54,783 nt of DNA from contig DCGM01000106.1 of the NCBI GenBank assembly GCA_002315255.1, positions 9,064 to 63,846 of the forward strand, given 5' to 3'. The stretch is from Lachnospiraceae bacterium UBA1778. Lineage in GTDB: Bacteria > Bacillota > Clostridia > Lachnospirales > Lachnospiraceae. Positions within the stretch are counted from its first letter, which is position 1, and every line of letters begins with the position of its first letter. The notes beneath the pieces were generated by a model. It saw only the letters and a list, made by a program, of their open reading frames with translations, made no database searches and was not told the origin of the DNA. Below are positions 32,315 through 47,569 of this stretch, in pieces. A program made the position numbers and the translations under genes.

Positions 32315-34039
32315 TTATTCGGATTCTTCGGTAGGTTCTTCTGTCGGTTCCTCCGTAGGTTCTTCCGTAGGCTCTTCATCCGTAGGCTCCTCAGTTTCCT
32401 CATCCGTCGGGTCCTCGGTACTATCCTCGGTGCTGTCCTCGGTGCTGTCCTCGGTTCCCTCTTCGGTTGAATCTTCCGTGGAGGCTTCGGTTGAAGCCGT
32501 ATTCCTATCATTCTCCACAACCTGCGCTGTGATCTCGATATCGTCTTCTGTCAGATCAAAATCATGTTTGAAGAACAGTAGCGAGAGACTGGTGTACGCC
32601 TGGAGGTATACCGTCAATGTTCCGTCCGTACGGTTAAGCGCCAGCGGGTCATTGTTCAGCAGGTTGAATGCATTATTCTCAAACTCATTTAAGTAAATCA
32701 GTTCGGGATTCCAGGAAATGACTACCTTCTTCGTAGCTTCGCCATCGATTAGGTTCGTCTTTAAGCTGTAGTTCACGAGGATGTTTCCGGGCGTTGTATT
32801 GATTTCAATGTCTCGGAAGAAGCTGTCTGCTCCTTCAACCTCCAGCGTGAACTGGCCGCCGATGTGGTGGTAATAAGTATCATCAGGGGCCGTTACCGCG
32901 GTAATCGTAAACCGGATCTGCTCGAGCCATCCTAAGCTCTCTCCGGATTGAGACCGGACGCAGATTTTAAACGCATGCGATATACCGCTGGCATCATTGC
33001 CTTCTAATAAGAACGGCCCGTAATAGGGGCCCTCAAACGCGTCATAGCCTTCCGTCGAAGGATTGAACACGTCGCTCGCACCGAGTTCCCGCCATTCGTC
33101 AGGCTTTAAAAACGGGGTTTCCGAGCACTCTACACCGTCCGCGTATAGCGGCTCAATCCAGATGTCATAATCTGTGTTAAACGTTCTGGTGCCCTCTGAC
33201 GCAATCTTCTCGACTGCGATCATATAGCGGATATCATGACCTTCTGTATTATAGAGGAGTTTATTTTCAAAGTTGGCAATTTCAAATTCCAGTTCGTATT
33301 GAGCACCGTTCCATCCTCGCGTCATATACTCTTTCGTATCGGCTGAAAGATAGCCGCAGGCGAAGAAGCTGGAGGTTGCGACCATGTGATCGTATTCGTT
33401 TAAATACGCCACATATTTCCCTTCCGTCATGCACGGGGCCGTCAGCACGAGGCTTGCAGCTGCGATGCATCCCATGACGCGCATGAGCGTCGGCCGTGGG
33501 AACGGGCTTCTCTCTTTCGAAAGCCGGTCGTAAATATAATTGAGAACCGGTCTTCCGAAGAAGAGGACTAAGAGGAGGACGCACATCAGGATCAATGCTT
33601 TCGTCGAGGAGAGAAGCCTTGTGGCAAATCCGAGTTTCGGGAAAACATGCACTACCTTTCCGACATATTCCGCTGCGCTGATCGGATCATCTTCTGCTTC
33701 ATTGGCAGTACCCTTCGTCACAAACCGGCTTCCTGCCTGCTTGATGATCGCGTGTGTGACGAAGCTGTCATTCCGATAGTAGGTAACGATGTCTCCGACG
33801 GCCAGCCCGTCGTAGTCCCCGCTCTTAATGAGGATCAGGTCTCCTGTCATAATCTCCGGTTCCATCGAGCCGGACTCTACGGAAAGCACCGCGTACGGAA
33901 GCCACCGGAGTTTTTCGGAAAGACCTGTTTTAGTTAAGATAATCGTTAAAATGTTGATAGCAATGAGACCGCTTAAAAGGATTGTGAGAAGTACCTTCAG
34001 GACCTTATAGGCGGTGGTCTTTAAGGTATTTCCGTTCAT
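32315..34039 (-). CDS. SipW/Sec11-type (S26B) signal peptidase I fused to a C-terminal substrate-like exported domain with an acidic tail (574 aa)
   Basis: The peptidase part has:
- an N-terminal TM (VLKVLLTILLSGLIAINILTIIL);
- a Ser box LSVESGSMEP;
- a His box VTHAII;
- TKGTANEAEDDP (SipW KGDNN..D-type box);
- a second TM ALILMCVLLLVLFF.

The fused part has a basic loop and a third hydrophobic segment MRVMGCIAAASLVLTAPCMTEG. Next come KYVAYLNEYD...FFACGYL (compare CalY/TasA TFAYFSD...TFAAGTL) and a ~350-aa domain resembling the neighbouring 557-aa protein. The tail is TEDSTEDSTEDSTEDPTDEETEEPTDEEPTEEPTEEPTEEPTEESE. The gene has an ATGA overlap with the upstream gene. Confidence 0.8.
   Translation of the reverse strand: MNGNTLKTTAYKVLKVLLTILLSGLIAINILTIILTKTGLSEKLRWLPYAVLSVESGSMEPEIMTGDLILIKSGDYDGLAVGDIVTYYRNDSFVTHAIIKQAGSRFVTKGTANEAEDDPISAAEYVGKVVHVFPKLGFATRLLSSTKALILMCVLLLVLFFGRPVLNYIYDRLSKERSPFPRPTLMRVMGCIAAASLVLTAPCMTEGKYVAYLNEYDHMVATSSFFACGYLSADTKEYMTRGWNGAQYELEFEIANFENKLLYNTEGHDIRYMIAVEKIASEGTRTFNTDYDIWIEPLYADGVECSETPFLKPDEWRELGASDVFNPSTEGYDAFEGPYYGPFLLEGNDASGISHAFKICVRSQSGESLGWLEQIRFTITAVTAPDDTYYHHIGGQFTLEVEGADSFFRDIEINTTPGNILVNYSLKTNLIDGEATKKVVISWNPELIYLNEFENNAFNLLNNDPLALNRTDGTLTVYLQAYTSLSLLFFKHDFDLTEDDIEITAQVVENDRNTASTEASTEDSTEEGTEDSTEDSTEDSTEDPTDEETEEPTDEEPTEEPTEEPTEEPTEESE
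32318..32500 (-). repeat. Tandem 12-nt-type repeats encoding the acidic Thr/Glu/Asp/Pro C-terminal tail of the peptidase fusion
   Basis: The + strand shows gtcctcggtgct x3 and (t/c)tc(c/t)tccgtagg(t/c) x4. The translation contains TEDS x3 and PTEE x4. The composition matches the giant protein's linker. Confidence 0.8.
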
Positions 34040-35709
34040 CTCTCTACTGCGCCTCCGTTCTCTTCATTGTAGAGTGCTTTCGTCCGATCGAAGTTGAAGT
34101 GCTTTTCTTCGTCGTCGGAGTAGACGCATTCGACAATCAATGTCATTTTGTTTCGGAAGGCCGCATTCTGAAGGGCTTCGTTCGTCTCATCCGCAACGAT
34201 GCGGTACAGGTTGAAGGAGTCATTCGTGTAAACGGTTTCATCGTTCTTTGTCAAGGTATTCGACAGTGTGAAGACTGCCTGGCCATCGGTTCCGGCGTGA
34301 GCATTGAAGCTGCCGCCCAGCGAAGTGTCCGCATAAGAGAGGACAATGTATAACTGGTAGCGCCGCATTTCATCTTCCAGAACCGTCGGGATTCTCGGAT
34401 CATCCGGTCCCGTCATCACTCGGTAGGTGCCATACTGTTCATCGTACAGCCGATATTCGATGAGGTCCGGCGCTTCGGTAAGCGGAAGGAATTCATCCGT
34501 GATACCGTCGTCGTCGATGTCTTCGATATCCATCCGTTCAAGCTGCATATCGAATGCATCCTGGTCGTACCAGTTTTCCTCTCCGGGGTAATCATTGAGC
34601 GGAAGCATCAGCCGTACGTGGTAGTAAATGAATTTCTGCGTCTGCCGGTTTTGGAGCGCTGTTCCGTTTGTGATTCGGAACTTGAATTCTCCTCCGGTCG
34701 CATCCGGATCATCGTCTTCGTTGTAGAACGCCCGGTAGTCGATCTTGTAATGGTATTCGTACTGCCGGTCGGCTATCTCGTCTCCGTCTTCAGAGAGGAT
34801 GACGATTCCGGTTCCGTACCGTTCCTCAATCGGGATGTCGTAAAGCGTTTCGTGGCTTTCCGGGTCCGGCATCGTGACGTCCTGTCCGTCCTCGTCCTTC
34901 AGTTCGTTTGCAGAGGTGCAGGCGAGCAGGACTTCCATGTGCTCAACTTCATTCATCCAGTAGGCGTCGTTTGCTTTGACGACGATCGGATCTCCGTTTT
35001 CGTCCGTTCCGATCGTTTTCTCGATCAGGTTGCCTGCGGTGTCGAAGATCGGCCACTCGAGAATCAGCTTATGCATGTTCAGGTGAAGGGCTTCGCCGAG
35101 AATGCTGAAGGAGGCTTCTGTCATTTCGTGGTCCTCATCGGCGAGGTGTTCCTGAATCTCGCTGCTGGAGTAGAACCGGTATTCGTAACGGATCGGGTCG
35201 CCTTCCTTCTCGGGTGCCACCGTTCCGGTCTGAACTGCCGTGTAGTAGAACCATTGGCAGATCTCTGTTTCGGTGACCGGGTCCGTCGTGATGATCTTCT
35301 GTCCCAGGGTGAAGACCAGCGGCAGGTTGTGCGTCGTCCGGATGCGGACGGAGTATCGGATTCCGATCTCCGAAGCATTGCCGTCTGACATGCCGTTCGA
35401 TACGGAGAAGGGGTAAACCCTCGCGGTGTTCCGTTCGTCGTCCTCGTCGTACTTCATACCCGGTGTGTATTCGTTCTGTGCAATCTCATCGCCGAATGCG
35501 TTGACCGTCTCTTCCTGGAGATCGTCCAGTTCGACGTCGCCTAAGAGGACGGCGTTGAAGGAGGCTGCGCTGTAGCTCGTGTAGACCGTTCTCGTCTCTG
35601 CGAACTTTGCGTAAGAGATCGAAATGAGGAGGGCAAAGATGACGAGCGCCATCGCGCCGCTAACGATCACGGAGCGCTTTAATTTCTTCAAATCGCTGAT
35701 TTTTCGCAT
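34036..35709 (-). CDS. Exported two-domain TasA/camelysin-like protein with a SipW-cognate-like signal peptide (557 aa from the preferred start)
   Basis: The preferred ATG is at 35709-35707, preceded by AAAGGAGGA plus 5 nt. The ORF-track start at 35754 lies inside a leader hairpin.
- N-terminus MRKISDLKKLKRSVIVSGAMALVIFALLISISYAKFAETRTVYTSYSAASFNAVLLGD matches the TasA/CalY-type ..(T/S)(F/Y)A.F.(D/E)......F.A..L pattern.
- There are two copies of a jellyroll-like signature: YPFSVSNGMSDGNASEIGIRYSVRIRTTHNLPL and EFKFRITNGTALQNRQTQKFIYYHVRLMLPL. Confidence 0.7.
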   Translation of the reverse strand: MRKISDLKKLKRSVIVSGAMALVIFALLISISYAKFAETRTVYTSYSAASFNAVLLGDVELDDLQEETVNAFGDEIAQNEYTPGMKYDEDDERNTARVYPFSVSNGMSDGNASEIGIRYSVRIRTTHNLPLVFTLGQKIITTDPVTETEICQWFYYTAVQTGTVAPEKEGDPIRYEYRFYSSSEIQEHLADEDHEMTEASFSILGEALHLNMHKLILEWPIFDTAGNLIEKTIGTDENGDPIVVKANDAYWMNEVEHMEVLLACTSANELKDEDGQDVTMPDPESHETLYDIPIEERYGTGIVILSEDGDEIADRQYEYHYKIDYRAFYNEDDDPDATGGEFKFRITNGTALQNRQTQKFIYYHVRLMLPLNDYPGEENWYDQDAFDMQLERMDIEDIDDDGITDEFLPLTEAPDLIEYRLYDEQYGTYRVMTGPDDPRIPTVLEDEMRRYQLYIVLSYADTSLGGSFNAHAGTDGQAVFTLSNTLTKNDETVYTNDSFNLYRIVADETNEALQNAAFRNKMTLIVECVYSDDEEKHFNFDRTKALYNEENGGAVER

Positions 35710-47547: not shown

Positions 47548-47569
47548 AGTTCTCACCTCATATGGTCAA

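Follow-up and report, generated by a model that had tools for sequence, protein, structure and literature searches.

What could be made by a long run of genes that, enzymes aside, code almost wholly for proteins without a family annotation? The question is raised by a 54,783-nucleotide stretch of Lachnospiraceae bacterium UBA1778 (GenBank assembly GCA_002315255.1, contig DCGM01000106.1, positions 9,064 to 63,846), hereafter the window, in whose own numbering positions are given below. It carries a gene cluster in which dedicated endoplasmic reticulum (ER)-type signal peptidases, two or three of them in different versions of the cluster, are encoded among about seven to nine exported proteins, next to an McrB-type AAA+ protein and a very large terminal protein. 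The cluster is conserved in dozens of genomes of gut and rumen Clostridia and has apparently not been described previously. We propose, with a probability of about one half, that it builds a multi-subunit surface structure, probably a fibre or an adhesive appendage. An earlier sequence-only reading of this DNA had bounded a candidate system at 32315-47556; these bounds proved too narrow, as the system extends to the gene U4 (47570-48988) on one side and to a syntenic giant gene (945-32231) on the other. In order of transcription its features are the following (↓ marks the predicted cut in a signal peptide):

47570-48988, minus strand: U4, a cytoplasmic protein with HD-GYP (HD_5) and EAL domains, first conserved gene of the cluster (Pfam)
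46354-47556, minus strand: G1, a bitopic membrane protein with an extracellular family-1 domain and an IWLEGNDPDC box (hhalign, scan for transmembrane segments)
45248-46237, minus strand: G2, a short version of the G2L subunit, signal SSFA↓WFTISTAPEIKGISTRVAANGNLEIAL (hhalign of the N-terminal module)
45093-45121, minus strand: terminator-like hairpin of 11 pairs (8 G-C) followed by TTTTTTAT, just 3' of G2
43797-44867, minus strand: G3, an exported family-1 protein, SFA↓WLSIS, IWLEGQDADC box (motifs, hhalign)
42544-43800, minus strand: G4, an exported family-1 protein, SFA↓WYTIS, IWLEGQDPDC box (motifs, profile)
41679-42467, minus strand: G5, ER/archaeal-type signal peptidase I, paralogue 1, SDSMKP/SHRII (TIGR02228)
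39796-41538, minus strand: G6, a membrane-anchored McrB-type AAA+ protein (hhalign, PDB, PADLOC)
37342-39786, minus strand: G7, the cytoplasmic partner of G6, with an N-terminal domain and a charged tail (position, conservation)
36567-37361, minus strand: G8, ER/archaeal-type signal peptidase I, paralogue 2, TGSMEP/THRII (TIGR02228)
35911-36570, minus strand: G9, a small exported protein, TYG↓WYTK (family alignment)
34036-35754, minus strand: G10, an exported protein, SYA↓KFAET (hhalign to the ~200-aa family, X200)
32315-34039, minus strand: G11, a third ER-type signal peptidase with a substrate-like domain fused to it in frame, SGSMEP/THAII (TIGR02228)
945-32231, minus strand: giant secreted protein, 10,428 aa long, which closes the cluster in the variant seen in the window (synteny)

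All the relevant genes lie on the minus strand, in the transcription order U4, G1 through G11 and then the giant open reading frame (ORF). A check against the sequence found the ATGA start/stop overlaps at 34036-34039, 36567-36570 (G8/G9) and 43797-43800 (G3/G4) and the 20-nt overlap of G7 and G8 at 37342-37361 exactly where the sequence-only reading had put them, and every peptidase and signal motif that it quoted is present in the ORF implied. The likely start of G8 is the ATG at 37359-37361, within an enclosing ORF of 36567-37496, and 13 nt separate U4 from G1. A 67-aa ORF at 44943-45146 overlaps the hairpin 3' of G2 and is probably spurious; the long plus-strand ORFs at 32202-32696 and 37760-38290, whose translations abound in Ser/Val or Ser/Phe repeats, are not genes but antisense shadows cast by the tails of G11 and G7, which are acidic and repetitive. 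Library matches between U4 and G11 (Pfam, NCBIfam, PADLOC, PHROGs) are confined to the peptidases, G6 and U4. The PHROGs scan gave no phage-family match among the window proteins, and no Rfam family, c-di-GMP riboswitches included, was found at gathering thresholds in the window and four loci.

The same genes recur together in many genomes. A word-indexed search with G4 returned 148 homologues, all unnamed, and a G4 profile matched 6,468 cluster representatives (50% identity) at E <=1e-3 among 1.84 billion searched. With one genome per species, the family-1 profile found 242 relatives, from which 79 loci were kept, all from Clostridia and represented by metagenome-assembled genomes (MAGs) or isolates; among the carriers are Oscillospiraceae, Lachnospiraceae, Acutalibacteraceae and Ruminococcus, as well as organisms resembling Faecalibacterium, Roseburia and Acetatifactor. 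The common order in the 79 loci begins with U4, G1, G2L (650-950 aa), G3, a G5-type peptidase, G6 and G7, continues with G4, a G8-type peptidase and G9L (~640 aa), and ends with a ~200-aa "YA↓RY" protein, a ~400-aa "A↓RY" protein and BIG, a protein of 1,400-2,300 aa whose signal and N-terminal module are those of G2. When the 51 loci with a full upstream flank are considered, G5 is present in all 51, G3 and G7 in 50 each, G2 in 48, G6 in 46 and G1 in 43; downstream, in the 58 loci with at least 7 kb of sequence on that side, G8 is present in 58/58, a BIG-type gene in 52/58 and G9 in 51/58. Two peptidase genes were found in 33 of the 44 loci with both flanks. Median gaps are 3 nt for U4-G1, 2 nt for G4-G8 and -32 nt for G8-G9, unlike the regions around G2, where about 110 nt lie on each side, and the whole cluster spans ~17-50 kb. 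The gene order is almost fixed across loci, and its recurrence in 79 independent loci is far beyond chance. The sequence-only reading had itself counted a lack of co-occurrence of the gene set in other genomes among the findings that would refute it, and on this point the loci speak strongly in its favour.

The same reading knew of no described system with this composition, and we too found none: across ~8.3 million full texts there is no account of a SipW-type cluster with an McrB-like protein, and none of these protein families is described. The co-mention of SipW and McrB that did surface has mcrB only as part of an E. coli genotype. The NCBI name of the homologues is "hypothetical protein".

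The proposed ER-type character of the three peptidase paralogues is supported by their TIGR02228 (archaeal-type signal peptidase I) scores, which are 92.9 bits for G5, 74.9 for G8 and 83.9 for G11 against a curated cut-off of 51.85 bits. As expected of this type (MEROPS S26B), in which Ser and His stand where bacterial enzymes have a Ser-Lys dyad, the catalytic Ser and His and a conserved Asp (S70, H113 and D138 in G5 numbering) are invariant in an alignment of the three window enzymes with six orthologues, and in the GD motif the first Asp is replaced by Thr in G11. Each peptidase has one N-terminal and one C-terminal hydrophobic segment, and orthologues of G8 are 200-268 aa long. As the three score 110.3, 94.1 and 62.1 bits with the SipW equivalog model NF046067, below its cut-off of 190 bits, they are SipW-type but not SipW orthologues.

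The signals of the exported proteins share a distinctive end. In the consensus of each family, drawn from 19-67 orthologues, the signal ends in S/T-aromatic-A and is followed by W/R/K and then an aromatic residue, so that the cleavage regions obey the -3/-1 rule and both P2 and P2' are aromatic. This holds from G2L (vSstYA↓WFTLSTAPEvtGItT.VGANGNLE), BIG (satFA↓W.TlSr.PEv), G3 (AtYT↓WFSlSrTPrVSd) and G4 (ssYA↓W.tlS..P...Giqv) to G9 (TaA↓WYTNV), the ~200-aa family (aYA↓RY) and the ~400-aa family (tqA↓RY). The site of TasA is GTWA↓AFND, and mature TasA in PDB entry 8AUR starts at A28. Set against that structure, the likeness to SipW-processed signals that had been noticed in the bare sequence is upheld, the consensus resembling the TWA↓AF of TasA. 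The aromatic P2' makes TasA a poor substrate of E. coli LepB, and B. subtilis cuts it with SipW (PMC10269814). Judged from these consensus sequences, the predicted cleavage sites of the cluster are of the same kind as that of TasA, aromatic P2' included.

The exported proteins had been sorted into two classes from the bare sequence, and profile-profile comparisons built on orthologues from the related loci recover both. In the first class G1-G4 are mutually homologous: hhalign gives 100% probability for G3-G4, 96.4% for G1-G3, 89% for G1-G4, and 98-99% when G3 or G4 is compared with the N-terminal module of G2L or of BIG. The N-terminal module of G2 is common to the G2L (650-950 aa) and terminal BIG (1,400-2,300 aa) proteins (hhalign 100%). 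G2L and BIG also both carry a C-terminal (V/I)YLDG...N...LNLQF box; as this box is shared too, they hold the whole family-1 domain. The IWLEG(Q/N)D(P/A)DC.N box that had been ascribed to all four family-1 proteins of the window is exact in G1, G3 and G4, but degenerate in G2 (YIFVKGNDVTNADF). Two elements of the family are strongly conserved, namely the segment W-x-T-L-S-x-x-P-E-V just after the cut and the C-terminal W-L-E-G-Q-D-x-D-C box. The latter, in the form W-x-E-G-Q-D-x-D-C, is nearly invariant, with one conserved Cys (C399) and acidic residues, and could be a metal-binding or covalent cross-link site.

An AlphaFold2 (AF2) model of G4 made with a 43-sequence alignment is beta-rich and confident (predicted local distance difference test, pLDDT, 83.6; predicted template modelling score, pTM, 0.83). 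The ~15 residues past the predicted cleavage site have low model confidence yet top conservation (A28, W29, S33, P36). The model has no structural match in BFVD (Foldseek), and neither G4 nor the family-1 profile finds anything meaningful among PDB sequences, TasA included. No Pfam, NCBIfam, PADLOC or PHROGs family was recognised in G1-G4, G9, G10 or the C-terminal domain of G11, and Pfam likewise found nothing in a complete common-type locus and in 32 G2L/BIG proteins. Taken together, G2/G2L, G3, G4, BIG and the uncleaved G1 share one beta-rich domain without a known fold.

G1 has a conserved cytoplasmic N-terminal tail and a single transmembrane segment (112-130), and its orthologues carry the cytoplasmic motif GRKxLRxEMKxxGIKSKKEFELTASSxGLYFDK and no S/T-aromatic-A↓W site. 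Because the cleavage site is absent and the conserved cytoplasmic motif precedes a single transmembrane segment, G1 should stay in the membrane; it is a candidate membrane base, and it is the uncleaved, membrane-anchored family-1 paralogue that the sequence-only reading had described. G2 is bordered by the two largest intergenic gaps of the cluster, and of 46 other loci 17 have a strong hairpin (<=-12 kcal/mol) with a T-run between G2 and G3, versus 0-4 at any other junction. These flanking intergenic regions of its own and the terminator-like hairpin make G2 the candidate major subunit.

G9, which the sequence-only reading had placed in the second class, lines up in the family alignment with the N-terminal domain of G9L (~640 aa) and forms a family of its own, whose resemblance to the other families lies mostly in the signal peptide and the first residues beyond it. 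A homologue search with G9 only returned just itself, and a profile-based search was used instead. The top Foldseek matches of its model (pLDDT 46) among 350,542 chains are AbpA, an archaeal bundling pilin (7UEG, E 5.6e-4), and the Hyper2 tube (9BAB), followed by the TasA fibre (8AUR, E 8.6e-3), CanA (7UII and 9HDI) and chaperone-usher pilins. The Pfam family Peptidase_M73 is seen below threshold in 3 of 49 G9 orthologues (best E 1.2e-4); the ~200-aa and ~400-aa families give no Peptidase_M73 signal, and in Pfam no window protein matches PF12389 (Peptidase_M73). Against TasA itself hhalign gives less than 20% probability for every exported family, and the G9 profile does not retrieve TasA from PDB sequences. 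The "Bagel/cell surface protein" matches of the G9 profile in the PDB were rejected, being confined to one 20-residue aromatic motif in which no stretch passes alone. G9 is the sole component with TasA/AbpA/CanA-like signals, and these are weak; of the TasA-like character that had been ascribed to the whole second class, this indication in G9 is what remains, and it is established neither for G10 nor for the C-terminal part of G11. A distant G9-like protein of 200 aa (GTYA↓KYTSQ...) was also seen at 149-748 of locus L088, where the rest of the cluster is absent, on a low-GC-looking contig with phage- or plasmid-like and ABC-transporter genes as neighbours. By the evidence of this protein, G9-like/TasA-like proteins also occur alone.

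In the second class that the profile comparisons recover, G10 matches the ~200-aa family with 87% probability (hhalign, E 4e-6), and this family in turn matches the ~400-aa family at 97%; some members of the latter (X400) bear adhesin-type domains. Homologues of G10 are present in L060 and L083. G11 has three hydrophobic segments, the third of which (185-203) is followed by TEG↓KYVAYLNE, giving an internal-signal-peptide topology, and its substrate-like domain ends in an acidic PT/E-rich tail. By hhalign this domain has no similarity to the ~400-aa family. Because relatives encode peptidase and substrate as separate adjacent genes, G11 is best seen as a natural fusion of the two.

G6 and G7 are the most novel and least understood part of the cluster. 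G6 aligns with E. coli McrB with 96.9% probability (hhalign, E 1.8e-10), its family profile matches McrB in the PDB (6HZ4, E 0.002), and its AAA+ domain matches the PADLOC candidate defence model PDC-M26A (E 9.7e-38). The last match indicates an McrB-like ATPase subfamily that this envelope cluster has in common with candidate defence systems; no paper naming PDC-M26 was found in the literature. The Walker A (GISGTGKTS), Walker B (ILDEMN) and GTINNDDST motifs are invariant in 25 G6 orthologues, the last aligning with MNTADRS of McrB. G6 is probably a GTPase. No other protein of the cluster is as well conserved, its identity across families being 57-77%. Hydrophobic segments occupy positions 29-47 and 79-97, where McrB has its DNA-binding domain. 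G7 always follows G6 directly, at a median distance of 22 nt, and combines a conserved N-terminal domain of ~345 aa with a long charged tail that is coiled-coil or disordered. The scan for transmembrane segments found no hydrophobic segment in it, and it has no Pfam, NCBIfam, PADLOC, PHROGs or PDB match, nor one to AAA or other NTPase families. The sequence-only reading had seen in the two a membrane-anchored pair of McrB-like NTPases (nucleoside triphosphatases), which is right for G6 but not for G7.

The window represents a rarer variant of the cluster, with a third peptidase and the giant protein. Here and in the closest relatives (L003, L004, L006, L007 and L060) G4 precedes G5, and the downstream part of window-type loci consists of the short G9, G10, the third peptidase and the giant gene. 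A metagenome scan with G10 returned nothing, and a scan with the G9 alignment gave the informative loci: the giant-type arrangement was confirmed on three metagenomic contigs (L083, L085 and L086). In L083, G8-G9-G10 are followed by a G11-like fusion and then by a giant homologue (33-34% identity) that runs to the contig end. L085 carries G1 to G9 and a G10-like gene; its third peptidase (173 aa) and an "AYA↓KY" protein (512 aa) are encoded separately, and there is a giant-like ORF that exceeds 2,189 aa. L086 has the gene order of L085, with the third-peptidase region recovered by tblastn and no separate peptidase ORF in its ORF list. In all three, giant homologues (23-34% identity) come directly after the third peptidase or its substrate gene, so that the giant gene is conserved next to the third peptidase, in line with the sequence-only reading, which had the cluster end at the giant gene. 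The protein has an ordinary signal peptide (...HVEA↓SSPEIQD), almost no Pfam coverage beyond faint Ig-like matches, no similarity to BIG and, by BLAST, no strong internal repeats. At least 6 copies of an LNALTGGLFFN-like motif recur in it at irregular spacings of 700-2,100 aa, and an acidic linker rich in E/T/P/D occupies residues 8838-8896. Conserved position is the only tie between this protein and the system.

At the other end of the cluster, U4 scores above the Pfam cut-offs for both HD_5 (68.1 bits) and EAL (57.5 bits) and has no hydrophobic segment. In 33 other loci G1 is immediately preceded by a U4 homologue, the median distance between the two being 3 nt.

On these grounds the surface structure proposed at the outset might be put together as follows. 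After Sec export, each paralogous peptidase would free its neighbouring substrates, and the conserved N-terminal segments so exposed would join subunit to subunit, donor-strand exchange being one possible way. The major subunit would be G2 and the membrane base G1, with G3, G4, G9, G10 and the C-terminal domain of G11 as minor or adaptor subunits and the last, very large protein as a distal adhesin. G6 and G7, docked at the membrane, possibly on the tail of G1, would gate or power assembly, and turnover of cyclic di-GMP (c-di-GMP) by U4 would supply regulation. More tentatively, the cluster might stand for a distinct, hitherto overlooked class of NTPase-coupled surface filaments of Gram-positive bacteria, in which ER-type peptidases take the role of prepilin peptidases or sortases, subunits of a new fold are joined by their N-termini, a membrane-anchored McrB-type GTPase with its coiled-coil partner drives assembly or retraction, and c-di-GMP exerts control. 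The proposal lends itself directly to testing, since it names the cleavage sites as well as the candidate major subunit, base and motor.

Several observations weigh against a fibre. Foldseek of the G4 model against the PDB has a best E of 0.14 and TM scores of at most 0.13, and since a confident model has no PDB match, family 1 is not a detectable TasA jellyroll; the TasA/camelysin fold that had been expected of it is therefore not borne out. Family 1 being without a match to TasA or to solved filament subunits, polymerisation is argued only from architecture. The G9 matches are weak evidence, given a model pLDDT of only 46. A family-1 module on the giant protein was sought and ruled out, as none is present. 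G7 has 0.3% probability of similarity to E. coli McrC (hhalign), and the role given to G6 and G7 is a guess without precedent, as fibres of TasA, AbpA and CanA assemble without an NTPase (PMC9674648; PMC9245690). The motifs of U4 are atypical as well (HHERWDGTGFP, with GFP for GYP, and FEAS for EAL), which makes its activity uncertain; one or both of its domains may be sensors rather than active phosphodiesterases.

The main rival to a polymer is the display of a large protein, that is, a cluster that exports, processes and anchors a single surface protein of very large size, be it BIG or the giant, with the small proteins forming a stoichiometric stalk or scaffold across the wall, G1 the anchor, and the motor helping to handle or display the cargo. 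The last gene always codes for a large secreted protein, commonly of 1,400-2,300 aa and in the window of more than 10,000 aa; the common-type BIG has the N-terminal module of G2, G3 and G4; some of the ~400-aa proteins have adhesin-type domains; and as TasA-type fibres need no cytoplasmic NTPase, another use of the motor is favoured. Nevertheless, the giant protein of the window lacks the shared module, the large gaps flanking G2 and the hairpin downstream of it are hallmarks of an abundant structural subunit, and five paralogous subunits that share a terminal segment are more typical of heteropolymers, leaving this explanation rather unlikely. We regard as quite unlikely some other envelope structure, such as a layer formed in sporulation or division, a device for contact between cells or a delivery system, in which the N-terminal motif would be a signal for the peptidase only. 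The conserved segment after the cut could indeed be the mere P' side of the peptidase site, none of the non-enzymatic components has an annotated family, and the family-1 fold has no structural neighbour; yet no specific alternative is indicated, domain scans found no sporulation, toxin, immunity or enzyme domains, the structures matched by G9 are filament subunits, and a c-di-GMP enzyme together with Ig-like or adhesin-like terminal proteins fits adhesion or biofilm formation.

Another explanation would be an ordinary TasA/BsaA-type matrix operon into which an McrBC-like defence module was inserted by chance, next to an unrelated giant adhesin gene. Several paralogues with a signal peptidase are frequent in TasA/BsaA operons (PMC11580942), and the G6 AAA+ domain does match both PDC-M26A and McrB. 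However, G6 and G7 keep their position across several families, in 46 and 50 of the 51 loci respectively, which, with G6 exceeding every other cluster protein in conservation, makes a stray defence insertion unlikely. The anchor of G6 in place of a DNA-binding domain, the lack of any nuclease, McrC or PADLOC match in G7 and of phage-family matches, the synteny of the giant gene in three diverged relatives, and a family 1 that is not detectably TasA-like all speak against it too, and we consider this explanation very improbable.

Further genes lie beyond U4 and the giant gene. Two small ones are found upstream of U4:

49037-49750, minus strand: U3, a small gene upstream of U4 with C-terminal transmembrane segments (tblastn/phmmer)
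50035-50487, minus strand: U2, a small gene upstream of U4 (tblastn/phmmer)

Neither has a family match, and tblastn and phmmer matches are limited to L003, L004, L006 and L007, so that their membership of the system is uncertain. At 50638-54783 (minus strand) lies the gene of an MBG-repeat protein (MBG_2) of 1,321 aa with a C-terminal transmembrane anchor, seen in just one other locus (L001, from the same organism); as its frame is open from 54603 to the window end, the gene is longer and leaves the window. Downstream of the giant gene, a partial ORF at 3-884 (minus strand) encodes a CHASE2 sensor (67.2 bits) together with a signal or transmembrane segment; the output domain falls beyond the window. 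Of the c-di-GMP-type genes that had been placed on both sides of the cluster, the upstream HD-GYP and EAL gene stands, but downstream there is only this partial CHASE2 sensor.

Gut and rumen Clostridia are abundant and hard to culture, and their attachment to surfaces is largely obscure. If the cluster does build a fibre, sortase pili, type IV pili and TasA fibres would be joined by a further, new way of assembly. McrB-type AAA+ proteins, which to our knowledge have so far been known from DNA restriction, would also gain a role in the cell envelope.

Comparison with known systems separates functional analogy from relationship. Sortase pilus islands, an analogy of function only, likewise have several paralogous, dedicated processing enzymes encoded among their subunits, which comprise major, minor and basal ones and a large tip adhesin, and in both cases the subunits share a recognition motif. 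There, however, the motif is a C-terminal LPXTG used for transpeptidation, whereas here an N-terminal signal peptide is cut; the cluster has no sortase or LPXTG motif, the domains are unrelated, and pilus islands have no NTPase. Type IV filaments, again comparable in function only, share with the cluster a dedicated peptidase, a membrane-associated cytoplasmic NTPase and a conserved N-terminal segment of the subunits by the cleavage site, a module that large adhesins may carry as well. The Ser-His enzyme of the cluster cuts after the hydrophobic segment, in contrast to the prepilin peptidase, an aspartic enzyme, which cuts ahead of it; the NTPase is of the PilB/GspE type there and of the McrB type here, and the cluster has no PilC-like platform protein. 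With McrBC the likeness is confined to the core of G6, which aligns with McrB over the Walker A, Walker B and NTAD-like motifs, and to the partner gene that follows in both. A membrane anchor replaces the DNA-binding domain of McrB, G7 has no detectable similarity to McrC or a nuclease, and the context is one of exported proteins rather than defence genes.

The sipW-bsaA-bsaB-bsaC locus of C. perfringens is, like the cluster, an operon of the SipW type from a Clostridial genome; it encodes TasA-like paralogues together with an accessory secreted protein of larger size. The polymers of BsaA are anchored in the membrane, and secretion of BsaC depends on the type IV pilus (T4P) machinery (PMC11580942). 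The cluster differs in encoding no von Willebrand factor A (VWA) protein, in having its own McrB-like motor instead of a PilB-type ATPase, and in a family 1 without detectable relation to BsaA or TasA. The tapA-sipW-tasA operon of B. subtilis (calY/tasA in B. cereus) also sets a dedicated ER/archaeal-type peptidase beside its substrates, with several exported paralogues, as in the cluster. The two have the same type of site (TWA↓AF in TasA, SFA↓WY or SYA↓KF here), and G9 of the cluster adds weak Peptidase_M73 and TasA/AbpA fold signals. One peptidase there stands against two or three paralogues here, and the fold of the main exported family of the cluster is a different one, for which no match was found. 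No NTPase is needed for TasA fibres (PMC9674648), whereas the cluster encodes one: to the tapA-sipW-tasA plan it adds a conserved membrane-anchored McrB-type AAA+ protein and its partner, besides a membrane paralogue that keeps its signal segment and has a cytoplasmic tail, a gene for an HD-GYP/EAL protein and a terminal protein of 1.4-10 kaa. As far as relationship can be read from protein sequences, it is the SipW/TasA and SipW/BsaA operons that are the relatives of this cluster.

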